DNA from: Candidatus Nanoarchaeia archaeon
GTDB taxonomy: Archaea; Nanobdellota; Nanobdellia; Woesearchaeales; ARS49
DNA: 64,000 nt
Assembly (NCBI GenBank): GCA_041488275.1
Contig: JBGPOY010000005.1
Location: 20,386 to 84,385, forward strand
Direction: 5' to 3'
Position numbers and translations under genes: made by a program. The notes under the pieces were generated by a model, which worked only from the letters and a program-made list of their open reading frames with translations, was not told the DNA's origin and ran no database searches. Below are positions 14,907 to 64,000 of this stretch, one piece after another (within the stretch, counting starts at the first letter, position 1; every line of letters begins with the position of its first letter).

Positions 14907-14997
14907 GGCTTGCTGTTCTCGTTCTCGCTTTATATATCTTTTTACGAATAAAACGGGCACTTTTTTAAAGAACGTCAGCTGAAGGGTTGCCGTGGCG

Positions 14998-17640: not shown

Positions 17641-18147
17641 CTATACCGCCGCTTCAACCGTTGAGAACAGCGATTCTAATCCGAACTTGAGCATTTTGCG
17701 TTCCGTGATTTTGTCGTGCGTGTGGGGGAAAATGACCCAGCGCTTGTCCGTTGAACTGTCGGGGTTTGCGAAAATCAGGCACAGTTTCGGGAATTTGGTG
17801 AGCGCCTGCCAATTGTCGAGCACCATTTCCAGGTTCTTGTGCGTGTTCAAAACGACCAGTACTGCATTCAGTTCGGGCTGCATGCGCGAAAATAATGTTT
17901 CAAGAGAAGTCAGATGAGGAACGATGAGGATGTGCTGCGCGCCGTCCTTGCGAATGACCGTGAGCGTCCAGCCGTCGCCGCGCTGGATGCTGACGATGTT
18001 TTTGAGCAGCAAGTCCTTGTTTTTGAGGTAGTGTTCGGTCCAGTCCGTGAGCGCGTCATCTGCTGCGATGGTTTCACCGTTCTTGCTGCCTTTCTTGAAT
18101 AATATAAGCTTTTCTCTTTCCCCAACCAGTATACGAAAACGTAACAT
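17641..18147 (-). CDS. Hypothetical protein (start uncertain, possibly ATC at 18069)
   Basis: typical codon usage from about 18070 down; protein-like WTEHYLKNKD, WVIFPHTH. Confidence 0.75.
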   Translation of the reverse strand: MLRFRILVGEREKLILFKKGSKNGETIAADDALTDWTEHYLKNKDLLLKNIVSIQRGDGWTLTVIRKDGAQHILIVPHLTSLETLFSRMQPELNAVLVVLNTHKNLEMVLDNWQALTKFPKLCLIFANPDSSTDKRWVIFPHTHDKITERKMLKFGLESLFSTVEAAV

Positions 18148-18212
18148 TTATATATTGAGTCACTCATAAAGAATGCACACATTTCGAGAGTTCAAAGGGA
18201 ACAGGTGAGACT

Positions 18213-52346: not shown

Positions 52347-53174
52347 TTATGGCGCAGAAACAGTCGGAAGCGTCAGCGTCATCGCGGTCACAGGGCTGTT
52401 GAAGCACAGCGGCATCTTGTACTGCTGCGTCGCGGTAATGGCATACGTGTCGGGCGCGCTTCCCTCGGCGCCGTTCCACGCGATGAATCCTTTGTCTTTC
52501 GTGTTCAAGCCCGTCAGAATGTCGTCAACGCACAGCGATTTCGCCGAGCCGGTCGGATATTTCCTGCACGTGTCGAACGCGACGACTCCCGTTTGCAATC
52601 GGGTGTACATTTCCTTGAGCGGATAGTTATAGCGCGCCGTGAACGACACACGTGCCTGATAGACATTGAGGAAACTTCCGCGGTTCAGTTGCACTTCAAC
52701 GGTCTTAGGAAGAGGGATGGTGACGTGCTCCGGCAGCAGAGGCGCGCCCGTGACGGTCAGCGGATTATCGACGGAAATAACGTACGAAACCGGCGCGTTC
52801 ATCTGTTTCGTGACGAGCGTTCCCATCGCTGTTGCGATGTCCGGCAGCAACGGAATGTCACGCACCGCAATCGATGCAGGAGCAGCAGCGGTGCCTTGCC
52901 GTTGGCAGCGCTCGGCGCTCGCGCCCTGTCCTGCGCTTCCCGCCAATTGATAGATTGCGTCCTCGATGGCGTAGCGCGCCTGCAGTTCGCGCGGAATAAA
53001 GACATCAGATTCGGTCGCAGTGTACGTCGTGGCAAGCGTTTCCGCGTGCGTGCCGAGCGGGTTCGACAGTTTGTCAATTTTGTCCGAGAGCACGATGTTC
53101 GACGCAATCAGGAGCGCGCCCAAGAATACCAAGACAATGAGCGGTTCAAAGATGAAGAACGCACGGCGGTTCAT
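52347..53174 (-). CDS. Pilin-like protein, class III signal peptide
   Basis: MNRRA|FFIFE + hydrophobic helix. Confidence 0.8.
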   Translation of the reverse strand: MNRRAFFIFEPLIVLVFLGALLIASNIVLSDKIDKLSNPLGTHAETLATTYTATESDVFIPRELQARYAIEDAIYQLAGSAGQGASAERCQRQGTAAAPASIAVRDIPLLPDIATAMGTLVTKQMNAPVSYVISVDNPLTVTGAPLLPEHVTIPLPKTVEVQLNRGSFLNVYQARVSFTARYNYPLKEMYTRLQTGVVAFDTCRKYPTGSAKSLCVDDILTGLNTKDKGFIAWNGAEGSAPDTYAITATQQYKMPLCFNSPVTAMTLTLPTVSAP

Positions 53175-53677
53175 GCGAACGGCCCCGCGGCTGCGCCCTG
53201 TCCTTGCGATGCTGCGTTCTCGTCAGCGGCGGTTGTCTGCGTGTACGCGACCGTGAACACCTTGCCATTGGGCAGCGGCAGCGTCGCGCTCGACGACAAC
53301 CCTGCGGAAATGAGCGAGTCGCCGAACGCCCACGAGCTTCCGTCGGGCAATGTGATAAGGATGCGGTTGAGTTTCTTGTTGTCCAAGGATTTAAGGAATT
53401 GTGTCGTTACTTGCTTGACGCGCTGTTGGTCGTTTGCTTCAACTCCTTGCGCAAGCACTTCGGCAAACGGCACCTTGTCGCCGCCCAAGTCGACGGATTG
53501 ACGCAGATACGAGGACAGCACGACTTCGCGGTCGGGCGTCTGCACGGCGTCCATCGCCGCGAGACGGTTGCGTCCGAATTCAGGCTTGAGCAGGAGCGCA
53601 ACCACGACAATCAGCAGGAGCAATACCCACGAGAAAATGATGAGCAGCAGGCGTCCCGCGATTTGTCCGCGTTTCAC
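53171..53677 (-). CDS. Pilin-like protein, class III signal peptide
   Basis: MKRG|QIAG + hydrophobic helix; GTG start. Confidence 0.8.
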   Translation of the reverse strand: MKRGQIAGRLLLIIFSWVLLLLIVVVALLLKPEFGRNRLAAMDAVQTPDREVVLSSYLRQSVDLGGDKVPFAEVLAQGVEANDQQRVKQVTTQFLKSLDNKKLNRILITLPDGSSWAFGDSLISAGLSSSATLPLPNGKVFTVAYTQTTAADENAASQGQGAAAGPFA

Positions 53678-54186
53678 GAGGACGCCCTCCGCAGGACTTC
53701 AATCGTGCCGGTCGTGAGCGTGTCAATGCCCTTGTCGCGCACGATGATGGCGACGGGGAATACGAGTTGTTCCGTGCTTCCAGCGCCCGTGCCGCCGACT
53801 TGCGGCTGGAGCCATCGATAAAATTGTTCATAATAATACGTCGTGGTCGTGCCAAGCGTGACTTTGGCGGCGAGCGTCTGGCTGTCTGCCGCAATCCACG
53901 CAGCGTTCGTGAGTCTTGTTGAGAGCGCAGGGTCGCGAAGCTTGTCCGCGTCGACGACGCCCGGAATTGCTCGCCCCGTTGCGTCAAGCGCAGCAAGCCC
54001 GCTGGGCGAATACAATAATTCGTGTTCGAGCGCCGCCGCGTCGGCAGGGAACGTGTCCTGCTTCGGGTTGATGCGGTTGCCGAGGTAGAGCGTCAGCGTG
54101 CCGAAGATGATGACGAGCATCAGCGTCGTGAACACTATCCACGAGAGCGTGTATGCCGAAACTTGGGCGTTACGTGAGCGCAGCAT
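53674..54186 (-). CDS. Pilin-like protein, class III signal peptide
   Basis: RSRNA|QVSA + hydrophobic helix. Confidence 0.78.
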   Translation of the reverse strand: MLRSRNAQVSAYTLSWIVFTTLMLVIIFGTLTLYLGNRINPKQDTFPADAAALEHELLYSPSGLAALDATGRAIPGVVDADKLRDPALSTRLTNAAWIAADSQTLAAKVTLGTTTTYYYEQFYRWLQPQVGGTGAGSTEQLVFPVAIIVRDKGIDTLTTGTIEVLRRASS

Positions 54187-55036
54187 AGAGTTGGTCCGAG
54201 GTTTCTCCGGGTTTGGCTACGGTGATGAGCAGGACGACGCCGGGCTTGCCGTCCGGCAGGAGCTGGCTGACGGAGTTCGCGGGAGCGTAATCCTTCGCAA
54301 CCGGGATGACTGCGGCATTGAACGTGAATGGGTCGAGCGGTTTTGCCGTCGGAAGCTGCGTATTCACCAGAGCGCAGCCGAGCGCGACTCCTTTCACGTT
54401 GACGTAGGCAATCGCAGAAGGAGTGCTCGCGATTCCGACAACAATCGTTGCGTCCGCGCTCGCGATGGTGGCGTCGCGGAACGCGGTGTCGCTCAGCGTG
54501 TCCTTGACGCGCGCAGAGTCGGGGACCAGCCGTGCGGGATTGTGCGCGACGATTGACTGGACAACGGCTTGCGCATCCGCGGTTGCGGGGATAATTGCAA
54601 TCTTTCCCGTGATGGTGACGGGCGGGCAGCCGAACGAATACGCGTTCGTTGCTTTGCGGTCCGCTCCGACGGTGACGGTGTTCGCAGCAGTCTGGAATCC
54701 GACCGAAGAAACGCCGTCGGCGGTGAGCGGAATTTCCTTGAGCGCGCGGTCGAAGACGTACATTCCCTTCCCCGAACCGACGATAACGATTCCTTGTCCC
54801 AGTCGTGTGGGCGCGGTGACCGTGATGCCCGGAATTACGAAATCATAATACGCGTTCGCGCCGGCGTACAGGTCCATGCCTTGCCGCGTGAGCGCCAAGT
54901 CCTTGACGGCATACTGCTGTTCCGAGAGATGATTGTCCTTGGCGCGGTTGATGAGGAGAAAGATTGCGGACGTCGCGATGACGACAATGACGAGTTCGAT
55001 AATGACCCATAGTACCTGCGTTTGGGCGCGCTTCAC
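54170..55036 (-). CDS. Pilin-like protein, class III signal peptide
   Basis: GTG at 55036: MKRA|QTQVLWVIIE. Confidence 0.8.
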   Translation of the reverse strand: MKRAQTQVLWVIIELVIVVIATSAIFLLINRAKDNHLSEQQYAVKDLALTRQGMDLYAGANAYYDFVIPGITVTAPTRLGQGIVIVGSGKGMYVFDRALKEIPLTADGVSSVGFQTAANTVTVGADRKATNAYSFGCPPVTITGKIAIIPATADAQAVVQSIVAHNPARLVPDSARVKDTLSDTAFRDATIASADATIVVGIASTPSAIAYVNVKGVALGCALVNTQLPTAKPLDPFTFNAAVIPVAKDYAPANSVSQLLPDGKPGVVLLITVAKPGETSDQLYAALT

Positions 55037-56769
55037 GGCGTCACCAGTGTCGTGCTCGTGGCGGGCGTGAAGCACGTTCCCGCAAGCGCGCCGTTCACGA
55101 AGTCATTTCGGCAGGATTGTCCGACGGGGCACGTGTCGACGAGCGCCCATTTGTTGTCTTTGCAGGAATAGCGGTTGTCGTAGTTCGGGCGCGGGCTTCC
55201 GACGGCGATGGTAACGGGGAAACCGAGCATTTTCTTGACGTCATTGAGCGAGAGCTGACCGCAGAGCGACATCAGCGGGTCGACTGCGCAGGAATTGCCG
55301 GGGTAAATAGTGCCAAACGGATTTTTTGCAGGAATAATGGGTATGCCGTTGCACGCCTGCGGAGCTCCTGCCGGGAAATTTCCTGCGTTGCATTGCTCAA
55401 TCAGCTTCAGGAGCGCGGCGTTTCTGATTTCCAGCAGCGAAGACGTGCGGTCATCGCGCTGAAGGACGTTCGCGTACGCGTTCAGCATGGCGTCGACGTC
55501 ATTGCCGGACAGGATAGTCTTTGTGCTTTCTGCACGGTATGCCTCGCCAAGAATGTACGAGGCAACTGCGGGCGGTACAGCGTCCTGCGGCGTGAGTGTT
55601 TGTGCTGCCGTGGTCAGCAACGGAATCGCGGTCGTGAAATCGCTTTGCGCTCCGGTGACGAATCCGCGCAGGAACGCCAGCAGTGCGTTGTTAGGCAAAG
55701 CGGTTGAAAATGCCGTGAGCCGTTTCGATGCGGCGGTAAGTTGAGACGCGATAGCGGGATTCAATTGCGTATCCTGGCTCAATGACGGGAACGGCGTTGT
55801 GGTGACGATAATTTCTCCGGTCTGCCGGAAGTAGTCTGCCAAACCATACGTCGCGATGTACGCCACCGCACCCTTCGCTGCGTCCACCGTATTGCCAAGC
55901 AGGTAGTTGGATTCGGAGATTTTGAATTGCGCGTTGCGCACCTTTTCCTGCAGCTGCGGGCGGTCGCCTGCGACCGTGACAAAGCGCGTGTAGTGCTTCA
56001 ACGCTTCGGCGTAGTTCTTTGCGTTGAACGCGTTCTCGGCTGCCGCGAAAATGCTGTCAAACGCGTTCGTGATGACTGCGTCTTGGCGTGATTTGATGAC
56101 GCTGTCGCTCAGTCCGGTCGCGACGAGGATGACGTTTTTGCCTTCGATAAACGCTTTCTCGAGATAGACGGGCGTGGTGCCGAACGCGTTCTTGAGGAAG
56201 CCGCACTTACCGTGCATCGACAGCGAGCTCTGCGTCAATTGCGGCGCGAGGTTCGTGTACGCTGCGGGAAGATTCGCGTACTGCAGTCCTTTGAACGTAT
56301 CGACTGTTTTCTGCGTCACCGTGATGCCGTCGGTTTTTTGGTACACGAAACTGACGATGTTGTCGACTCCGGGGAACGTGACGCAGCCGCGCGGCGTGTC
56401 CGTGATTGCTTTGAACATGCAGAGGCACGCGAGCGTGCCGCAGGAGCTCGGTCGGTTAATTGCTTGTGTGGTTCCGCAGCTGTCGACGGGCGTTTCCGTG
56501 CCGGCGCTGAAGCCCACAATCGTGTAATCATTGCTGATGTAGAGCGGAATCGTGCCGTGGACAAACGGTTCGAGATTGGCGGAATATTGCGTTATTTTGC
56601 TCGCGAGGGAGAGGAACGAGTACGTGGTGCCGGTTTCTTCATTGCTGGAGCCGGAGCCAAATGCGCGGATGGCGAAAAACAGCACGGCCGAAATAAGCAC
56701 GACCACAAGAATAAGCCCGATGAGCTCCCACAATACTTTTCCCACTTCCTCTTGTGCGCGGCGGTTCAT
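55033..56769 (-). CDS. Large pilin-like adhesin with TPR region and Cys-rich tail
   Basis: MNRRA|QEE; CLC motif; AENAFNAKNYAEALKHY TPR. Confidence 0.82.
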   Translation of the reverse strand: MNRRAQEEVGKVLWELIGLILVVVLISAVLFFAIRAFGSGSSNEETGTTYSFLSLASKITQYSANLEPFVHGTIPLYISNDYTIVGFSAGTETPVDSCGTTQAINRPSSCGTLACLCMFKAITDTPRGCVTFPGVDNIVSFVYQKTDGITVTQKTVDTFKGLQYANLPAAYTNLAPQLTQSSLSMHGKCGFLKNAFGTTPVYLEKAFIEGKNVILVATGLSDSVIKSRQDAVITNAFDSIFAAAENAFNAKNYAEALKHYTRFVTVAGDRPQLQEKVRNAQFKISESNYLLGNTVDAAKGAVAYIATYGLADYFRQTGEIIVTTTPFPSLSQDTQLNPAIASQLTAASKRLTAFSTALPNNALLAFLRGFVTGAQSDFTTAIPLLTTAAQTLTPQDAVPPAVASYILGEAYRAESTKTILSGNDVDAMLNAYANVLQRDDRTSSLLEIRNAALLKLIEQCNAGNFPAGAPQACNGIPIIPAKNPFGTIYPGNSCAVDPLMSLCGQLSLNDVKKMLGFPVTIAVGSPRPNYDNRYSCKDNKWALVDTCPVGQSCRNDFVNGALAGTCFTPATSTTLVTP

Positions 56770-56772
56770 ACA

Positions 56773-57204
56773 TCAGCTGGGGTTCTTTGCAGTGCATTGG
56801 AAATACGGAGCGGCGCTGACGAGCTGGGGGCAGACTTTCTTGAGATCCGCGTCCTTGACGTCGCCGCCGCAGCACGCTATCAACGGAGTCGTTGCCTTTT
56901 GCTTGTCGCGCACGCAGTCGTCGGAGAGTTTGGACGCGGTGGTGACTTTGTAGTCGTTGCCGCCGATGCACGTGGTGCAGTAGAGCGCGAGCCCTTCGAC
57001 GTCTTTAGGCACGGTGCTTGAGGTGTCAATCTTGCACTTCTGGATTTGGACGTCGAGCTGGTTGGGAAGCAGTTGGTTGATGGTTCCTATCGTCGACGTG
57101 CTCGACCTGCCGAGGATGACCAGAACAATTGCCGCTGCGGCGAGAATCACGATGAGGAAGACCATCATCATCGTCAACCCTTCCGCACCTCTTTTTCCGT
57201 GCAT
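56773..57204 (-). CDS. Cys-rich pilin-like protein
   Basis: MHGKRG(A)|EGL + hydrophobic helix; 8 Cys. Confidence 0.8.
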   Translation of the reverse strand: MHGKRGAEGLTMMMVFLIVILAAAAIVLVILGRSSTSTIGTINQLLPNQLDVQIQKCKIDTSSTVPKDVEGLALYCTTCIGGNDYKVTTASKLSDDCVRDKQKATTPLIACCGGDVKDADLKKVCPQLVSAAPYFQCTAKNPS

Positions 57205-57480
57205 TTAGCCACCCGGTTGGATGCAACACTTTGCCGGAACGACTTCGTTTGAGCCCGGCGTGTTGGCCTGCTTGCAGTCGCTCGTGGAGATGGCTGCGGG
57301 TTTGTCCGCAGGGCACGGCGCCGATGTCGGCTGGCATTTGCCGTTCTGCCCGAGACAGGAGTTGAATTTGGTGACTGAACTGAAATTGTTGGTGAATGCG
57401 TAAATCAGCAGGACAGCAACGACCAGCCCGATGACGAGCCAGACGACAATCATGATGGTATCGTTGCCGCGCCTGTTCAT
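57205..57480 (-). CDS. Small pilin with six-Cys head
   Basis: MNRRG|NDT; C-x6-C-x6-C-x12-C-x15-CC. Confidence 0.82.
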   Translation of the reverse strand: MNRRGNDTIMIVVWLVIGLVVAVLLIYAFTNNFSSVTKFNSCLGQNGKCQPTSAPCPADKPAAISTSDCKQANTPGSNEVVPAKCCIQPGG

Positions 57481-57818
57481 GCGCACACCTTCTTCGTATC
57501 GTCCCATTTTCCGCAGCCCAGACCGCACGCGTCCTGCGTGCACTCGTCCTTGGAAACGTAATCACCGCACTTCTTCAAGTTCCCGTCGGCGCAGCACGGG
57601 ATTTGCGACGGTCCGGACTCGCAGCAGTATCCCGAATTGATGGTTTGTCCATTGCACGGGCACGGAGTCGTGACCTGCTTTCCGGTCGCGCAGCCGAAAC
57701 TTGTGATAGGGCTCGCGATGTTCTTGAGATTGCCGAGCGTGATGAAGATGAACAATCCTGCGGCAACAAGCACGACAATCCAGAACACAATCATGCCCAT
57801 CAGGTCTCCTCGTTTCAC
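57477..57818 (-). CDS. Small pilin with 12-Cys head
   Basis: MKRG|DLMG; GTG start. Confidence 0.8.
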   Translation of the reverse strand: MKRGDLMGMIVFWIVVLVAAGLFIFITLGNLKNIASPITSFGCATGKQVTTPCPCNGQTINSGYCCESGPSQIPCCADGNLKKCGDYVSKDECTQDACGLGCGKWDDTKKVCA

Positions 57819-57949
57819 GGGAGTACGCCTCCGGTCAGGCCGGGAAATTTTCCTTGGAAGATGAGAATCAGCCCGATAAGCACGGCTGCGGTGATTGCCA
57901 TGATGACGAGCGCTATCACCACTTCTTGGCTGACGTCACCTCGTTTCAT
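57815..57949 (-). CDS. Headless micro-pilin (44 aa)
   Basis: MKRG|DVSQEVVIALVIMAITAAVLIGLILIFQGKFPGLTGGVLP; TTTATAAA 22 nt upstream. Confidence 0.75.
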   Translation of the reverse strand: MKRGDVSQEVVIALVIMAITAAVLIGLILIFQGKFPGLTGGVLP

Positions 57950-57980
57950 AGTAGGATTTGCTCGTTTGTTATTTATAAAC

Positions 57981-58724
57981 CTATGCGGGGTTGACCGGAT
58001 ACACCGTACACCCCAGGACGTCCTTGAGCCAGAACTGCGTGTCCGGCACGAATAGCACCTGCGCAGTCCAGTCCGCGGGCGTGTTCGAGCCGAGCTGGTA
58101 GCCCGCATACCCGCCGATGACGCCGAACAGCGCGCTTCCGATAAGGGCGCCCTGCAGCTGCGTGACTTTCGTCGTTTTCGCGTACCGGAACACGGCAGCG
58201 TACGGCTGCGACGTATCAATGATGTCGGGCTTGACGCTCGTGACTTGCTGCGTCGTGCCTTCCGTCGTTTGCGAGCCTTGCAGGAACGCGAGATACGTCT
58301 GCCCGTTGGGCGCTTGCAATTGTTTCAGTGTCGCAATCAGTCCAGAAACTTGCCGCGGCGAACTCGTTGCTTGGAACACGGTGCACGGATGGCAGAAGAC
58401 TTCATCTTGGAGCGGGAACAGTTCTTTCTTGCCTTGCTTCCACGTGGACCAGCAGTTGTACAGCGCGCTCGCGACCGACGCCTTGATGTCGGCGTCAGAG
58501 CCGCTGAACTGCTTGTATTCTGTCGGGCACTTAATGGCGCCGCCGAAGTCCTGCCCGAGCAGGTGCAGCGTGATGGAGCTGTCGATGCTTTGCTGGCACG
58601 AGGCGCGGTTCGCGTACACGTCGCCGCGCTTGAAGATGTCCGTGCCGAACGCGAGGAAGACGAGAATGATGACGACCATCAGGATGAGCGACAGCGTCGT
58701 CCGCGTGAACATCTGCCCTCTCAC
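57981..58724 (-). CDS. Pilin-like protein (paralog of 58721-59455)
   Basis: MRG|QMFT; A..LYNCW, CHPC, GQTYL. Confidence 0.82.
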   Translation of the reverse strand: MRGQMFTRTTLSLILMVVIILVFLAFGTDIFKRGDVYANRASCQQSIDSSITLHLLGQDFGGAIKCPTEYKQFSGSDADIKASVASALYNCWSTWKQGKKELFPLQDEVFCHPCTVFQATSSPRQVSGLIATLKQLQAPNGQTYLAFLQGSQTTEGTTQQVTSVKPDIIDTSQPYAAVFRYAKTTKVTQLQGALIGSALFGVIGGYAGYQLGSNTPADWTAQVLFVPDTQFWLKDVLGCTVYPVNPA

Positions 58725-59455
58725 GGATACCTCGTAAAGGTGATGTCACACGCCTTGTTGAGGTGTGCGAGCGTCGTGGCAAAGACCCAGTTGGTTTCCT
58801 GCGTCTTGTCGACAGAAACGTCTGAAACGGTGAACTGCTTTCCTGCAAACTGCGTGAGCCTGCGCCCGGGAAGGCTGTAGTCAATAATGGCGTAGTCCGT
58901 GCCCGCGTCGAACTCGTTTCCGATCTCTGCCGTGTTGGTGCTTTGGTCGTACACGTCCATCAGGAGATAGTCTGCGTCATTTCCGGCAGCGCTGAGCTTC
59001 ACATAGTCGAGATAGGTTCCGCCTTGCACGAGCGAATGTTTGGTCATCCAATCCGTCAAACTCGAAGTCGTGACGGTCGTGGGCGTTTTGAACGTGGAGC
59101 AGACAAAGCAGACCGAGTCTTTGATAAAGAAATTACCCTGCCACGGAGAGTGGGCAGCTTCGCCGAATTGGTATCGGCACTCGTAGAGCGCTTGGGCGAT
59201 TTGCTGGTTCATCTCGTCAATTTTAGGCGGTGTTACCGTCGACTTCAGCGTTCCCAAGTCTTTGGTGTAGCAGTTGCTCACGCCTACGAGTTGCTTCGAA
59301 TTCGCCGCGAGATTGACGTCCGCCTTGCACGCCGTGATGTCAATCTTCGCCCGCGCCTTGAGCGCGATGCTTCCCACAACGCCAAGCAATACCAGCCCGC
59401 CCACGACTGCGATGATGATGGCGACGAGCGCGGTTTCGGCGATGGCGCGGCGCAT
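58721..59455 (-). CDS. Pilin-like protein
   Basis: MRRA|IAET; AQALYECR, CFVC, GGTYL. Confidence 0.82.
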   Translation of the reverse strand: MRRAIAETALVAIIIAVVGGLVLLGVVGSIALKARAKIDITACKADVNLAANSKQLVGVSNCYTKDLGTLKSTVTPPKIDEMNQQIAQALYECRYQFGEAAHSPWQGNFFIKDSVCFVCSTFKTPTTVTTSSLTDWMTKHSLVQGGTYLDYVKLSAAGNDADYLLMDVYDQSTNTAEIGNEFDAGTDYAIIDYSLPGRRLTQFAGKQFTVSDVSVDKTQETNWVFATTLAHLNKACDITFTRYP

Positions 59456-59560
59456 TTAGCCCCCAAAGAAGTGTTTGCCGAGGTAGTACAATAGGAAAAG
59501 AAAGAACGTGCAGGTAAGAATCAGCATTACGAGCTGATCCGTGGACAGCCCTCTTTTCAT
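59456..59560 (-). CDS. Headless micro-pilin (34 aa), absent from the ORF track
   Basis: MKRG|LSTDQLVMLILTCTFFLFLLYYLGKHFFGG; TTTATATA 22 nt upstream; stop abuts next ATG. Confidence 0.72.
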   Translation of the reverse strand: MKRGLSTDQLVMLILTCTFFLFLLYYLGKHFFGG

Positions 59561-59592
59561 ACGTGAGAAACGGTCTGGACGCTATATAAATC

Positions 59593-59859
59593 TTAAGGTT
59601 TGCAGCAGACGCCAGCGCAGTCAATCCAGCTTTGCGCGAGCGGCGGGCTTGTTTTGCCGCCGGTCACGCAGTCCGGGCCGATTTCGCAGTGCCCGCTTTG
59701 CTTGGAACACAGCCGCGCGTCCGTGCCGGTCTGAATTTGGCCCGTGCCCTTGCCGAAGATGTCGAAGCGCGTAATCAGGAGAGTCATAATCAACACGAGA
59801 ACAATCAGCGCAATTGCGAGCCCGACAACCACTCCGATGCTCATCTCGGCGCGTTTCAT
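59593..59859 (-). CDS. Small pilin with six-Cys head
   Basis: MKRA|EMSI; C-x6-C-x5-C-x16-C-x3-CC. Confidence 0.85.
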   Translation of the reverse strand: MKRAEMSIGVVVGLAIALIVLVLIMTLLITRFDIFGKGTGQIQTGTDARLCSKQSGHCEIGPDCVTGGKTSPPLAQSWIDCAGVCCKP

Positions 59860-60104
59860 GAGCCGATACAGCAGACGGCGTCGCCTTTGATGACGGGGTT
59901 GTGACCGTCATCACAGTTCGTTGTCGGGACGGCCGAAGCGGTGCATTGTGCTGCGGTTTGGACGCAGCTACCTCGACACGTGCCGAGCCCCTTGCCGAAC
60001 AATTGGACGCGTCCGGTAAACACGACAACAAGAACAATCAAGACGATGAGCGCAAGCGCAAGGATGATGATGACGTTGATGGACATCCCTTGGCCGCGGC
60101 TCAT
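59856..60104 (-). CDS. Small pilin with six-Cys head
   Basis: MSRG|QGMSINVII; C-x3-C-x6-C-x9-C-x13-CC. Confidence 0.85.
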   Translation of the reverse strand: MSRGQGMSINVIIILALALIVLIVLVVVFTGRVQLFGKGLGTCRGSCVQTAAQCTASAVPTTNCDDGHNPVIKGDAVCCIGS

Positions 60105-60105
60105 G

Positions 60106-60360
60106 TTACTTTTGGATTTGCAGACAGCACGACTGTGTCGCGCCGCTGGCGGTGTTGGGGCACGCGAACGCCGGATACTCGCTCGTGCCGCTCGGGCACG
60201 CTCCGACGGCGCATCTGCCGCCCTTGTTTTCGCAGTCAGCGGACTGCTGGCTGAAGGTTCCGAACCTGCCCAGGAAGACGACGCTGAGCACGACGAGGAC
60301 GAGCAACGCGATAGCTGCGACAACGATGACGTTGATGGAAATTCCCTGTGCCTTCTTCAT
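60106..60360 (-). CDS. Probable major pilin with six-Cys head
   Basis: MKKA|QGISINVIV; own TATA (60403-60410) and GAGGTG RBS; C-x6-C-x4-C-x11-C-x10-CC. Confidence 0.87.
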   Translation of the reverse strand: MKKAQGISINVIVVAAIALLVLVVLSVVFLGRFGTFSQQSADCENKGGRCAVGACPSGTSEYPAFACPNTASGATQSCCLQIQK

Positions 60361-60422
60361 ATGACACCTCTCTTACGTTTTGTTGGTTTTGTGGTGCTGA
60401 TGTATATAAAGTTAATCCTCTG

Positions 60423-60554
60423 AGGACATCACCGCTCGCTCGGCCCGTCGCCCCGAAACGTGACCTGCCCAAGCCGTCTGGTTCGTCGTAGCGACGGAGA
60501 AGCGCTGAGTTCTCGACCGTCACTGCTGCCTTGCTCGCATCTTGGTGATGTCCT
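60423..60554 (-). ncRNA. Candidate structured element, copy B, closed by an 11-bp inverted repeat
   Basis: AGGACATCACC/GGTGATGTCCT; inner helices with G-U pairs on the minus strand. Confidence 0.5.
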
Positions 60555-62694
60555 AGCTCGTGGCCAACGTCGCCGACATAATCCTGACCGCGATGAAGTT
60601 GAAGATGACCATCACGATGAGGGCGATGACGCAGTACAGGAGCGTGCTGCGGAGGACGTTCTGCCCCACGGCGTAGCGTTCGCCGAGCTTGTCTGCGCCG
60701 TTCTCGATGCTGTTGGCGATGATGGTGAGGATGTAGATGATTTGCACGACGTAAATACCGACCACCATTTGGAAGAAATAGGTCGGAATCGAGTCGCCGA
60801 ACAGGGACGCAATCGTGCCGATGCTGCTCGTGCCTGCGCCTTGCGTGCTGAGCTTGCTGACCTGGCTTCCCAACGCGCCAAGGATGGTGGTAATCATGCT
60901 GGTAATGCCGATGACGATGCCCGAAATCGCGGGCGTGAGGAAAGAAATCTGCGACTTCATGTCCGAAATAATCTCGGCCATCAGGTCGCGGAGGCGTTCG
61001 TTGACGGCGTGGATTTCCTTGATGTAGCGGGCGACGTTCTGCAGCGCTTGTGCCGCAATCACGGGACCTTTGCGGATGCTTTCGAGCAGGACTTTCATCG
61101 AGCTCTCGATGATGGTGCTGGGGAAGTACGCGAGCGCTCCCGATCGCGGGTTGTACAACGCCTCACGAAGACCCATGCCGAGCTTGCGGATGTTCGTGCT
61201 CACCAGATTGAAGAACTGCCCCGAGACGGTGTCGGGAAGCATCTCCGCGACACGCCCGAAAGCAGCTTCGGCGGGAATGCCGTCGGCAAGCCGGTTGCCG
61301 AGCTGGAACAGCGCGCTGGCAAATTCGTCCTCGAGTTTTTTAGAATTCTCGCGGATTTTGATGACGTTCTGGCTGCGGAACTTGGCGTACAGCCCGATGA
61401 CCAACGCCAGCCCGACCGGAACGGCGAGCGAGAGCACGCTGGCAAGCAATCCGTACGGTCCGATGACGAGTCCGGGCGTGTCGGGGTTGTTGCTCGTTCG
61501 GTAATCCTGCAGTTTGATGCCCGCGATTTCGAACTCGAAGTTCGGCGCGACCGCGTGCAGAATCAGGGGCAGGAATCCGACCAGTAAGAAAACAACGCCA
61601 ACGATGATGCTAATCACGAGAGGATTGACCGCGACTTCCGTGCCGCCGATTTTGAAGAGGACGTTGCGGTATTTTTTGAGCGCGGGATTCAGTTCGGAAA
61701 CGTCCGTGTCGCCATAGCCCGTCGGGCGGGTCGACAGAATGTTGCGCCCGAGATAATACACGATGATGGGCAGGAAGACGTTGTACAGCACCGCGATGTG
61801 GTACCATTTTGCCGTTCCGATGAAGCTCACGACGAGCGGGAGAATGACCAGCCCGAGCACGGGAAGAATGATGCCGAGCATGTGCAGCGTCGTGATGGGG
61901 CTCTTGAGGTTGTGCGCGTAGTGCAGCATCTTTTCGTACGTTTCCTGCAGAATGACGTCCAGTCCTTTGTCGAGCAATTCCAGTCGGCGCGGCTCGGACG
62001 TTTCGTACAGCGAGCCCTCGATGAGGTGGAACGCTTCGACAAATTCTCCGTTCCACTTGCGCCACGTCTCAAGATACATGGCGAGGCTTTCCTTGACGCT
62101 CTCGAACTTTTCGGTCTCGACGTCCCACAATACTTTGCGCAGGTCGAGCGACAGCGGCGGCGCGAGGTGTTCTGCCGCGAATCCGACGGCGTTCTCGAGG
62201 TTGCTGGTGTGGCGCATGTACGTGACGACGTAGAACACGCACAGCACCATCTGGTTGCTCGCTTTCAGTCGCCAGTTGTTGGCGATGTATTGCGGCGCGC
62301 GCTGGAGTCCGATGATGAGGATGATGCCCATCAGGAGCGACATCAGCGTGAAGAAAATCGAGCTGAACAAAACGATGCTGATGAGCGTGCCGAACACCAT
62401 CACGAGCATCGGAAGAATGTAGGAAAAGGACAGCACTCCCGACGGCGTGACGCGCAGGTGGCAGATGTCGAGGTTTTCCTGAATCGCGACCGCCTTTGCG
62501 GGCGGAACTTTGAGCTTGAGGATTTTTTCACAGGCGTTGCACAGCTGTTCGTAGAGCGTAATCTGGAGCGGCATCGACTCGGTGCGGAACTGCTGGTATT
62601 CGCGAGACTGGAGCGGTGACTGCCGCACCGGAGCGGCGCCGAGCTCTTGCTCAAGCCGTTGTCGGTATTTTGCGAGGAGGTCGGTCTCGTTCAT
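60553..62694 (-). CDS. Type IV pilus platform protein (TadC/ArlJ/PilC-like, duplicated T2SSF domains)
   Basis: polytopic, two cytoplasmic helical domains (SNLENA; GIPAEAA); coupled to ATPase. Confidence 0.88.
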   Translation of the reverse strand: MNETDLLAKYRQRLEQELGAAPVRQSPLQSREYQQFRTESMPLQITLYEQLCNACEKILKLKVPPAKAVAIQENLDICHLRVTPSGVLSFSYILPMLVMVFGTLISIVLFSSIFFTLMSLLMGIILIIGLQRAPQYIANNWRLKASNQMVLCVFYVVTYMRHTSNLENAVGFAAEHLAPPLSLDLRKVLWDVETEKFESVKESLAMYLETWRKWNGEFVEAFHLIEGSLYETSEPRRLELLDKGLDVILQETYEKMLHYAHNLKSPITTLHMLGIILPVLGLVILPLVVSFIGTAKWYHIAVLYNVFLPIIVYYLGRNILSTRPTGYGDTDVSELNPALKKYRNVLFKIGGTEVAVNPLVISIIVGVVFLLVGFLPLILHAVAPNFEFEIAGIKLQDYRTSNNPDTPGLVIGPYGLLASVLSLAVPVGLALVIGLYAKFRSQNVIKIRENSKKLEDEFASALFQLGNRLADGIPAEAAFGRVAEMLPDTVSGQFFNLVSTNIRKLGMGLREALYNPRSGALAYFPSTIIESSMKVLLESIRKGPVIAAQALQNVARYIKEIHAVNERLRDLMAEIISDMKSQISFLTPAISGIVIGITSMITTILGALGSQVSKLSTQGAGTSSIGTIASLFGDSIPTYFFQMVVGIYVVQIIYILTIIANSIENGADKLGERYAVGQNVLRSTLLYCVIALIVMVIFNFIAVRIMSATLATS

Positions 62695-64000
62695 ACCTGC
62701 TGCTCCTCGAGGGGTTTCTTCAGTTCGCGCTGGAACCATTCGTTCCACACAAAGAAAATCTGTTCGCTGTCGAGCTTTCCGGTGTCTTCGCGCACCTGTT
62801 CCGAAACGCGGTGGAATTCGTCGTTGCTGACAATCGTGAACGGCGCTTCAAGAATGTCGGGGCGGCTGGATTTCTTGGCGGTCTCGACAATCTTTTGCTT
62901 GATGCGCGCGCGGAGGTTGATGTTGTCCCACACCGCATCCCAGTTGCCCGCCCATTCGCGCACGTTGCCGGCGATGCTCTTGAGGATTTCGCTGTCGCCG
63001 TTGAGCAGATCATTGGTGGGCTGGAGCGTGTCGGTAATCGCGTCGTACTTGAACAGGTCGACAAATCCGCCCTCGCGCAGCGGGTCGTCTTCCCAGACTT
63101 TGCGGACTTCGGTGATTTGCGTGACGCGTCTGAATCGGTGCAAGCCGTCCGGACTGCGCACGGGGTTCGCGACGATAATGATGTCCGTGGCTTTGAAGCT
63201 GGTGCGGGGAACGCCGAGGTCGTTGACGACGCGGTCGAACACGCCGTACGGGCTGTCGCCGTGAATCGTTCCGGCGACCGTGTTTGCGAGAGCTCCGACG
63301 CGCATGGCTTCATACAATGCCTTTGCTTCCGTGCTTCGCACTTCTCCGACGATAAGACTGGAGTCGCCCAATCGCAGCGTGGTTCGGATGCCTTCGTCCG
63401 CGGACACTTCGGTCGTGCCGCGCGTGAGCGCCGACGCGACTTTCATGCTTTGGATGTTGTAATTCATATCCTTCAAAGCCCCGACCGGAAGTTCCAGCGT
63501 GTCCTCAATCGTGATGATTCTGATGCGCCGCATGATTTCGACCATCAGCGCTCCGAGCAGGGAGGTTTTTCCCGAGCTGCGCGTTCCCGCGACGAGCATG
63601 GTGCGCGCACCGTCGATAAGAAAGCTCAATACTCCTGCGGCGAGCGACGAAATCATGCCGTTGTTGACGAACAGGGTGAGCGTCCAGGGCTTGTCGCGGT
63701 GGCGTCGGAAGCTGTACGCCAGACCTGTCGGGTTCAAGGGCGCGGTAATGGCCGCGACTCGCGCGCGGCTGGTAGGAAGCACGAGTTCGGTGTCGAGAAT
63801 CGGGTTTGCCTCGTCCAACGGGCGTCCGGAAATGAGTCTGAGTTTGGACGCCCAGCTTTCGGCTTCCGTGATGGTGGGAACGATGTTGGTGACGCAGTCT
63901 CCGAAGTCCTGATGGACGATGAACATCGGGATGCGTCCCATCGGCGAGTTGATGCTGATGTCCTGCACGCGTTCGTCCTCAAGCAAAACTTCAATGAGTC
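62691..64000 (-). CDS. Type IV pilus assembly ATPase (CpaF/ArlI/VirB11 family), 5'-partial
   Basis: AGTRSSGKT, TIEDTLEL, IVGEVRSTEA, GTIHG. Confidence 0.93.
   Translation of the reverse strand, partial: LIEVLLEDERVQDISINSPMGRIPMFIVHQDFGDCVTNIVPTITEAESWASKLRLISGRPLDEANPILDTELVLPTSRARVAAITAPLNPTGLAYSFRRHRDKPWTLTLFVNNGMISSLAAGVLSFLIDGARTMLVAGTRSSGKTSLLGALMVEIMRRIRIITIEDTLELPVGALKDMNYNIQSMKVASALTRGTTEVSADEGIRTTLRLGDSSLIVGEVRSTEAKALYEAMRVGALANTVAGTIHGDSPYGVFDRVVNDLGVPRTSFKATDIIIVANPVRSPDGLHRFRRVTQITEVRKVWEDDPLREGGFVDLFKYDAITDTLQPTNDLLNGDSEILKSIAGNVREWAGNWDAVWDNINLRARIKQKIVETAKKSSRPDILEAPFTIVSNDEFHRVSEQVREDTGKLDSEQIFFVWNEWFQRELKKPLEEQQV

Follow-up and report, generated by a model that had tools for sequence, protein, structure and literature searches.

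Small archaeal pilin-like proteins with a six-cysteine mini-head of predicted beta-defensin-like fold

In this study we describe four small pilin-like proteins encoded in a 64 kb stretch of the analysed archaeal genome (G000:C5:20386-84385, hereafter the window), each of which consists of a short leader, a hydrophobic helix and a head with six cysteines in the order C..C..C..C..CC. The reading that we favour, with a confidence only slightly above even, is that they serve as small subunits in a type-IV-pilus-like filament, in which a minimal, disulfide-locked head serves stability and adhesion and has converged on the defensin design. The head of pilin 1 and its orthologues is predicted by structural modelling to adopt a beta-defensin-like fold, and the natural loss of cysteines in pairs points to the matching disulfide map. 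The four genes are as follows, the slash in a leader marking the putative cleavage site:

60106..60360, minus strand: pilin 1, 84 amino acids (aa), leader MKKA/QG, helix ~7-40, head C43-x6-C-x4-C-x11-C-x10-CC, with CENKGGRCAVGACP; the probable major pilin
59856..60104, minus strand: pilin 2, 82 aa, head x3, x6, x9, x13, ending CC
59593..59859, minus strand: pilin 3, 88 aa, head x6, x5, x16, x3, ending CC, WIDC motif present; ATG overlapping the stop codon of pilin 2
57205..57480, minus strand: pilin 4, 91 aa from an internal ATG at 57480, leader MNRRG/ND, head x6, x6, x12, x15, ending CC

Cysteine spacings and head net charges were computed by script, with heads counted from the first cysteine (C1). 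Sequences and spacings agree with the original prediction, made from the DNA letters, that four six-cysteine pilins are present, and the pilin 1 spacing of x6, x4, x11, x10 is exactly the one it gave; the six-cysteine design stands, whereas the head length of 35-45 aa becomes 38-50 aa when measured from C1. Across the 917 kb genome, a six-frame regular-expression scan found the combination of helix and C..C..C..C..CC only in these four open reading frames (ORFs). Cysteine makes up 1.3% of residues in the genome's ORFs of at least 250 aa against 6 of 38-50 residues in the heads, and exactly six cysteines are present in 116 of 120 pilin 1 homologues (among the matches listed), so the pattern is not a product of chance. 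In the region N-terminal of C1, pilins 1-3 have 19-21 of 42 residues in common, and 10-12 of 41 are shared with pilin 4; the heads, compared pairwise, have just 3-11 non-cysteine identities over ~40 residues. The claim of similar helices and widely differing loops therefore holds in part, with pilin 4 less close to the others N-terminal of C1.

The family to which pilin 1 belongs is large. A word-indexed search gave 175 homologues at E <= 0.01; among the matches listed, 39 of 120 have the identical 6,4,11,10 spacing and all are named 'hypothetical protein' save two with evidently automatic labels, while the source names on homologous records include 'Candidatus Woesearchaeota archaeon', 'Nanoarchaeota archaeon' and 'Nanobdellota'. 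Within the pilin 1 orthogroup (120 sequences) the helix is the most conserved part, with invariant columns L19, V21, L22, V23 and L25; Q5, G6, I7, S8 and N10 are near-invariant, and the six cysteines together with G47 and G48 are conserved in at least 90%. When a profile of 78 diverse members was run against 1.84 billion representatives, 5,099 clusters were matched at E <= 1e-3 and 2,691 at E <= 1e-10, and six cysteines were present in 133 of 141 new representatives (again among the matches listed), all 133 arranged as C..C..C..C..CC. An even sample of the phylum (n=201 genomes, E <= 1e-5) was matched in 187 genomes, including 19 of the 20 from the window's own family, with weaker matches in distant genomes that possibly arise via the helix alone. 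Of 276 pattern matches in whole genomes, 112 were confirmed and 79 kept as related loci, and pilin 2 is present in 57 of these 79 by tblastn. A homologue search with pilin 3 returned only 2 proteins, and the pilin 3 alignment (78 sequences) was therefore assembled from ORFs of the related loci. The head gave no usable match in the ESM Atlas, and a search for longer proteins bearing it yielded 4 candidates, none of them scoring, which is weak evidence. Three relatives, P0146, P0262 and P0220, carry two heads in tandem on one pilin helix; the tandem heads of P0146 and P0262 indicate that the six-cysteine unit is a self-contained domain.

Natural variants give indirect information on how the cysteines may be paired. 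A crude ORF scan of 80 loci gave 281 small pilin-like ORFs, some of them spurious, with cysteine counts of 0 (45 ORFs), 1 (10), 2 (5), 3 (4), 4 (19), 5 (2), 6 (183), 8 (10) and 12 (3), so that the number is even in 220 of the cysteine-containing ORFs and odd in 16. Automatic global alignment of the 19 four-cysteine variants was too noisy for counting lost positions and was replaced by MAFFT alignments with the closest six-cysteine homologue, read by anchors (GWIDC, C..GG.C). Six of the 19 read C-x5-9-C-x20-23-C-x5-C-Y. Compared with their closest six-cysteine relatives, L066:5708, L038:6001, L073:6001 and L026:630 miss exactly C3 and C6; L041:2232 also lacks C3 and C6 and has a newly gained cysteine pair, and the second head of P0220 is a four-cysteine form without C3 and C6. 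Another nine variants retain CC and two upstream cysteines: L035:8896 lacks C2 and C4 relative to the 81%-identical six-cysteine L034:8914, L031:6849 lacks the same two relative to its neighbouring paralogue L031:6607, and the other seven are not assignable. The remaining four follow unrelated patterns. Joint loss of C3 with C6 and of C2 with C4 suggests that these are the bonded pairs, which would leave C1 for C5. The suggested connectivity, 1-5, 2-4, 3-6, is the one that the original prediction expected, is that of the beta-defensins and not of the alpha-defensins, and is reached independently of AlphaFold.

The AlphaFold2 model of pilin 1, built on the 120-sequence alignment, has a mean predicted local distance difference test score (pLDDT) of 83.6 and values of 82-84 across most of the head, and shows a helix at 7-40, a one-turn helix at 44-46 after C1, and strands at 48-51, 59-62 and 77-81 that carry C2 and C5-C6. 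In a Foldseek comparison of this model with 350,542 PDB chains the top matches were human beta-defensin 1 (hBD-1), hBD-3, avian defensins, hBD-2 and hBD-4, accompanied by a sea-anemone neurotoxin, alpha-defensins and a tick inhibitor, with no E better than 0.32. In an unbiased fold search against 48,161 chains, every row aligning mainly to the head was of defensin type among the matches listed, with fold scores in a range that may mean no more than a common arrangement. The alignment with hBD-1 extends from model residues 41-80 onto chain residues 3-36, in what we take to be the hBD-1 numbering, and skips six model residues, which is the excess length of the pilin 1 loops over x9/x6; judged from the span alone, this is as expected if all six cysteines of the model are equivalent to those of hBD-1.

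At the level of sequence, pilin 1 scores 19.6 bits (E 9e-4) against Pfam Defensin_beta, for which the gathering score is 21, over profile positions 2-21 of 36, and its head has G-G-x-C at C2 and C-P at C3. The defensin pattern noticed at the outset is thus borne out in part, as a near-match with both motifs, but one that stays below the gathering score and covers half of the profile; pilins 2-4 gave no Defensin_beta match in the Pfam scan. Defensin_beta is matched by 44 of 120 family members at E <= 0.1, two of which exceed the gathering score (P0037 with 24.3 bits and P0015 with 21.2 bits), and by just 8 of 78 in a more diverse member set. Weak matches were also obtained to the plant defensin-like family AtDEF-like (6 of 120 and 4 of 78 members), to Defensin_big (2 of 120), to Defensin_beta_2 and to the tick carboxypeptidase inhibitor family Inhibitor_I68, which we take to be defensin-like and which one member matches at 23.3 bits. 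Since animal as well as plant defensin-type families are matched, an effect of the cysteine pattern is suggested rather than ancestry. A profile search of PDB sequences returned transmembrane-helix matches and no defensin, the best cysteine-rich row being a carboxypeptidase inhibitor at E 4.7.

These results bear on the idea that the heads are truly related to the trans-defensins of animals (the beta-, alpha- and big defensins), whether through common ancestry or through gene transfer. The Defensin_beta and Inhibitor_I68 matches, the two shared motifs at C2 and C3, the connectivity suggested by paired losses and the predicted fold would all be accounted for by such kinship. We nevertheless regard it as very improbable: the Defensin_beta matches span just profile positions 1-23 of 36 and are few in the diverse set, the window protein lies under the Pfam threshold, the same sequences match AtDEF-like and other cysteine-rich families as the cysteine pattern would, and the PDB sequence-profile search was without a defensin. 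The phyletic gap is also very large, as the portion of a 2024 study available to us (PMC11561630) gives bacteria cis-defensins only and limits trans-defensins to vertebrates and some invertebrates. The prokaryotic relative of the trans-defensin fold that had been proposed is not established by a sub-threshold Pfam match that comes with plant defensin-like matches; convergence is preferred and is the most probable source of the resemblance to animal defensins.

Several observations weigh against the favoured reading, and the first of these concern the fold. The AlphaFold2 model of pilin 3 (78-sequence alignment, pLDDT 81.4) has fewer strands; Foldseek returned one row for it, the tick carboxypeptidase inhibitor 2jto at E 6.2, and two further fold searches with this model gave no defensin, the wide one having hardly tested the head. 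For the pilin 1 head nearly all fold-search matches were thus to beta- and alpha-defensins and defensin-like toxins, and for pilin 3 none was to a defensin. The structures are predictions, and AlphaFold2 could have been steered by the cysteine pattern. With regard to spacing, beta-defensins follow C-x4-8-C-x3-5-C-x9-13-C-x4-7-CC, and no protein among the four in the window has all of these spacings; pilin 1 fits three, with its C4-C5 loop of x10 falling outside, and in the family just 27 of 168 and 40 of 133 heads fit all four, although a C1-C2 spacing of x6 is found in 102 of 168. The heads are neutral to acidic, with a median net charge of -2 over 168 heads, a charge of <= -2 in 99 of them and of >= +2 in 7. 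By Pfam score, spacing, charge and precursor type they are not members of the beta-defensin family; the fold and the disulfide map may be shared. The lack of a defensin match for pilin 3, the spacing counts and the range of the fold scores, in a comparison judged without model coordinates, would also fit the alternative that the defensin likeness is an artefact of prediction and that the heads are three-disulfide mini-domains of another topology or connectivity. We consider this rather unlikely, as the losses of C3 with C6 and of C2 with C4 owe nothing to AlphaFold and point to the exact beta-defensin map, and as in the search of 48,161 chains the rows aligning mainly to the head were all of defensin type among the matches listed.

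Further points on the same side concern the disulfides. Two four-cysteine variants, L079:6258 and L029:5735, have ambiguous alignments and might go against the pairing. A survey of the order, covering 101 genomes, detected DsbB in 17 of them and VKOR in 31 (29 above cut-off), with a union of ~41 by a count of listed rows, although the pilins are nearly universal, and G014, a one-contig genome with these pilins, gave no DsbB or VKOR match. The analysed genome itself encodes DsbB (40.4 bits) in a frame that overlaps the end of a thioredoxin-like gene:

G000:C8:50898-51770 (L095:857-1728), outside the window: membrane-anchored thioredoxin-like protein with a WCPHC site, directly before the DsbB gene

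The WCPHC protein reaches 23.1 bits, where the cut-off is 23.5, and, by its sequence and position, likely forms together with DsbB an extracytoplasmic disulfide-forming pair in this DPANN genome. A MauE/YHS protein is encoded after the DsbB gene. Woesearchaeota are mostly anaerobes, and the ~60 of 101 genomes without a DsbB or VKOR match, in an order where the pilins are nearly universal, would be accommodated if the six cysteines bound a metal (in a Zn or Fe-S type site) or stayed reduced in an anoxic habitat. To us this seems hardly credible: losses affect particular pairs of cysteines and spare the other four, the cysteine count is even in 220 of 236 cysteine-containing small ORFs, no His or Asp co-ligand motifs accompany them, the domain is extracytoplasmic, and the genome encodes the pair of DsbB and thioredoxin-like protein.

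The pilin genes belong to a single, tightly packed minus-strand gene row that runs from 63998 down to 52347, in the order T2SSE-type ATPase, 731-aa membrane protein, a 192-nucleotide (nt) spacer, pilins 1-3, a 137-nt spacer, proteins of 244, 247, 44 and 113 aa, pilin 4, and proteins of 143, 578, 301, 170, 168 and 275 aa; neighbours mostly overlap by 4 nt or stand a few nt apart. All products from pilin 1 onward, ~15 consecutive pilin-like genes, open with a short, basic leader that ends in [KR][KR]-[A/G] and runs into a stretch of 20 or more hydrophobic residues. This is the archaeal class III (prepilin) pattern, and it is found as MKKA/QGISINVIVVAAIALLVLVVL and equivalents in all four pilins and in at least 9 neighbours. 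The pilin-like identity asserted in the original prediction is thus supported by leader, helix and a whole operon of such proteins. The other members of the row are:

62691..63998, minus strand: secretion ATPase (T2SSE / FlaI-TadA-like), Pfam T2SSE 58.8 bits, 5' end beyond the window
60553..62748, minus strand: 731-aa polytopic membrane protein, perhaps a platform of the TadC/FlaJ type that has diverged strongly
58721..59455, minus strand: 244-aa pilin-like protein, MRRA/IAETALVAIII..., 6 Cys, syntenic in L003, L004, L005, L059 and L016
57981..58724, minus strand: 247-aa pilin-like protein, RG/QMFTRTTLSLIL..., 6 Cys, present in 40 of 79 related loci
57815..57949, minus strand: 44-aa helix-only mini-pilin, MKRG/DVSQEVVIALV..., no head, 0 Cys, between the 247-aa and 113-aa genes
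57477..57818, minus strand: 113-aa pilin-like protein with a 12-Cys head
56773..57204, minus strand: 143-aa pilin-like protein, 8 Cys
55033..56769, minus strand: 578-aa pilin-like protein, MNRRA/QEEV..., Cys-rich C-terminus, candidate tip/adhesin subunit, in 20 of 79 related loci
52347..55075, minus strand: four overlapping genes (301, 170, 168 and 275 aa), each with a charged leader and a hydrophobic N-terminal helix

The ATPase has partial TadA/FlaI-like NCBIfam matches and is the third and weakest T2SSE match in the genome. The 731-aa protein has no Pfam or NCBIfam match; when it was compared locally by hhalign with the T2SSF proteins of the same genome, two segments could be aligned (E 1.7e-4 and 2.5e-4, with probabilities of 49% and 43%), and homologues with 55-78% identity are present in all 5 of 5 related genomes. 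In 2 of these 5 (L088 and L090) the match crosses one in-frame TGA, which may reflect an error in sequencing, a split gene or recoding. When 15 proteins of the operon were scanned against NCBIfam, the pilins had no match and the 578-aa protein only weak TPR-type ones, and the 301-, 170-, 168- and 275-aa proteins have no Pfam or NCBIfam match. The 12-Cys 113-aa and 8-Cys 143-aa proteins have cysteine arrangements of their own (CPC, CC, CC ...). With the 113-, 143- and 578-aa proteins all cysteine-rich, the whole operon appears to be built from disulfide-type extracellular domains. Synteny of the series pil1-pil2-pil3-244-247-(113)-pil4-143-578-301-170 is kept in L003, L004, L005, L059 and L016.

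The genome encodes a single Peptidase_A24 (G000:C3:52864-53196, 51.1 bits, above cut-off), and the T2SSE ATPase and the 731-aa protein adjoin the pilin genes in the window. Here, too, there are points that tell against the favoured reading. Neither the ATPase nor the 731-aa protein was found within 6 kb of a pilin gene in any of the 79 related loci, their genes standing at least 26-30 kb from the pilin genes in related genomes, and the analysed genome has two further ATPase/platform loci with classical pilins:

G000:C8:24288-28068: classical type IV pilus or archaellum-like locus, T2SSE and T2SSF split into two genes
G000:C3:116624-131654: classical type IV pilus or archaellum-like locus, T2SSE and T2SSF split into two genes

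The pilins of these loci start K-G-Q-AALEFLMTYGWA, have four cysteines each (KGQAALEFLMTYGWA..., 143-153 aa) and are of a different family from the six-cysteine pilins. Three ATPase systems are thus encoded within 0.92 Mb, and because the two classical loci coexist with the window's own, the machine that would assemble the six-cysteine pilins is ambiguous. The filament is here a prediction from genes, which, with an assembly link that is not conserved and heads that resemble a peptide class usually acting as free molecules, leaves room for the suggestion that the proteins are not filament subunits at all but membrane-anchored or released surface peptides, such as pseudopilin-like pistons or secreted effectors directed at a host. 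This we judge improbable, given that both leader and helix conform to the pattern of class III, that the genes stand among ~15 pilin-like genes including large candidate tip proteins, that the helix positions listed above (L19 to L25) are the most conserved of all, as packing in a filament core would predict, and that the heads are acidic or neutral, unlike membrane-active peptides.

On the favoured reading of a stable, adhesive filament, the single A24 prepilin peptidase would cut the pre-pilin after K-K-[A/G], and the hydrophobic helix of ~35 residues would pack into the filament core. The sole exposed part would then be a knob of ~40 residues held by three disulfides, C1-C5, C2-C4 and C3-C6, which in pilin 1 would consist of a short helix and a three-stranded sheet in a beta-defensin-like topology. 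Such a knob would be a minimal and very stable surface module and not a cationic, membrane-breaking peptide; its loops, which vary among the four paralogues and among species, would set the surface chemistry of the filament and probably its adhesive specificity, and the larger downstream pilin-like proteins would be minor or tip subunits. The net charges of the heads of pilins 1-4 (0, -1, +1 and +1) agree with the earlier statement that they are not strongly cationic and with the preference for adhesion over lysis that was drawn from it. Because of head charge, an antimicrobial or membrane-breaking role is unlikely as far as sequence can tell, and adhesion or stability is more likely than lysis. 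A stronger claim, that the beta-defensin fold with 1-5, 2-4, 3-6 disulfides is truly present, as a trans-defensin-type domain in prokaryotes that is displayed in many copies along a pilus nearly universal in Woesearchaeales, with loops tuning host attachment, seems to us possible at somewhat less than an even chance; its boldest version would add shared archaeal and animal ancestry and a filament acting on the host envelope.

Putative expression signals are found at two places in the row:

60403..60410, minus strand: TTTATATA, archaeal TATA-box-like octamer, 41 nt before the pilin 1 ATG
59583..59590, minus strand: second TTTATATA, directly after the pilin 3 stop, followed by a T-rich stretch at ~59490-59505

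A Shine-Dalgarno-like element, GAGAGGTG, lies just upstream of the pilin 1 ATG, and the octamer occurs 4 times in the 64 kb window against 0.05 expected. Together, the octamer and the GAGAGGTG element before pilin 1 would fit a strongly expressed major subunit. The other two copies of the octamer, at 14929-14936 and 18147-18154 on the plus strand, are probably strong promoters of other genes.

The genome from which the window is taken comprises 917 kb in 13 contigs (GC ~57%), with a completeness of 93.8% and a contamination of 0.9%, and encodes RadA and an archaeal DUF2240/OB-fold protein, which together with the names on homologous records place it among Woesearchaeota-type DPANN archaea. One 7.7 kb contig with an 82%-identical pilin operon (L002) is filed under a 'Candidatus Binatia bacterium' metagenome-assembled genome, and many Woesearchaeota-like contigs in the set of related loci are titled 'uncultured Methanosarcinales archaeon'; both labels are probably binning or labelling errors. 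Other head types were seen in the same loci. Three small pilin-like ORFs (L041:5137, L054:5056 and L067:8401) contain an Asp-rich 'DGVADFAD(E/R)CPC' and four cysteines in another pattern, and this head may be a separate type, possibly calcium-binding. A subfamily in L044, L049, L050, L053, L054, L056 and L067 reads C-x3-C-x14-17-C-x16-22-CCC with a terminal triple cysteine, and yet another starts with CxC, as alpha-defensins do.

DPANN archaea depend on contact with host cells, and their attachment structures are almost uncharacterised. The six-cysteine pilin family, present in 187 of 201 genomes and in more than 5,000 clusters with no assigned function among the matches listed, would be a main component of the DPANN surface. 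If the reading is true, no smaller kind of globular pilin head would be known, and nature would here be using a defensin-type scaffold as the surface unit of a polymer and not as a free peptide; defensin biology would gain either a striking example of convergence or a first lead to the trans-defensin fold in prokaryotes. Being short, the heads can be synthesised, which makes fold, disulfide map and binding directly testable. Literature on pilins, Woesearchaeota, DPANN and defensins, supplements left aside, gave no description of a six-cysteine pilin family, and we rate the proteins as type IV pilins with a novel defensin-like mini-head, a prokaryotic trans-defensin-type domain being unreported as far as we found.

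Among known systems, the cysteine-rich components of type IV pili in Thermoproteales (Makarova et al. 2016, PMC4858521) are from another lineage and are other proteins, and the part of that article available to us describes no six-cysteine mini-head or comparison with defensins and states that cognate nanoarchaeal pilins 'could not be identified'. The window's proteins share with archaeal type IV pilins and archaellins, such as the Aeropyrum pernix flagellum (7txi), the short basic leader ending in [KR][GA] and the long hydrophobic helix, with an A24 peptidase in the genome and a T2SSE ATPase adjoining; they differ in a head of ~40 residues with six cysteines and, as the variants suggest, three disulfides. 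In characterised archaeal pilins the head is a larger beta-sandwich. Flp/Tad pilins and Geobacter PilA are likewise very small and mostly helical, the 44-aa gene at 57815-57949 being of such a kind, and have no disulfide-rich head.

Among the defensins, big and two-domain forms (the tick inhibitor 1zlh/2jto and avian AvBD11, 6qeu) resemble these pilins in joining a defensin-like domain to another module, and the tandem heads of P0146 and P0262 and the weak matches to Inhibitor_I68, Defensin_big, 1zlh and 2jto point the same way. Big defensins have a hydrophobic N-terminal domain, whereas the archaeal proteins have a single class-III-type pilin helix at their N-terminus, and none of the sequence matches to these defensins is significant. 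The best structural matches to the pilin 1 head are the vertebrate beta-defensins (PF00711; hBD-2 1fd3, hBD-1 2nle, crocodile CpoBD13 7t9q), with which the family has in common six cysteines ending in CC and the frequent x6 between C1 and C2, while pilin 1 adds GG-x-C at C2, CP at C3 and a predicted short helix with three strands, and the variants suggest the same 1-5, 2-4, 3-6 pairing. Unlike beta-defensins, the archaeal head is fused to a pilin helix instead of being released from a secreted pro-peptide, is neutral or acidic, has an x10 loop between C4 and C5 in pilin 1 and much wider spacings across the family, and stays below the Pfam threshold.

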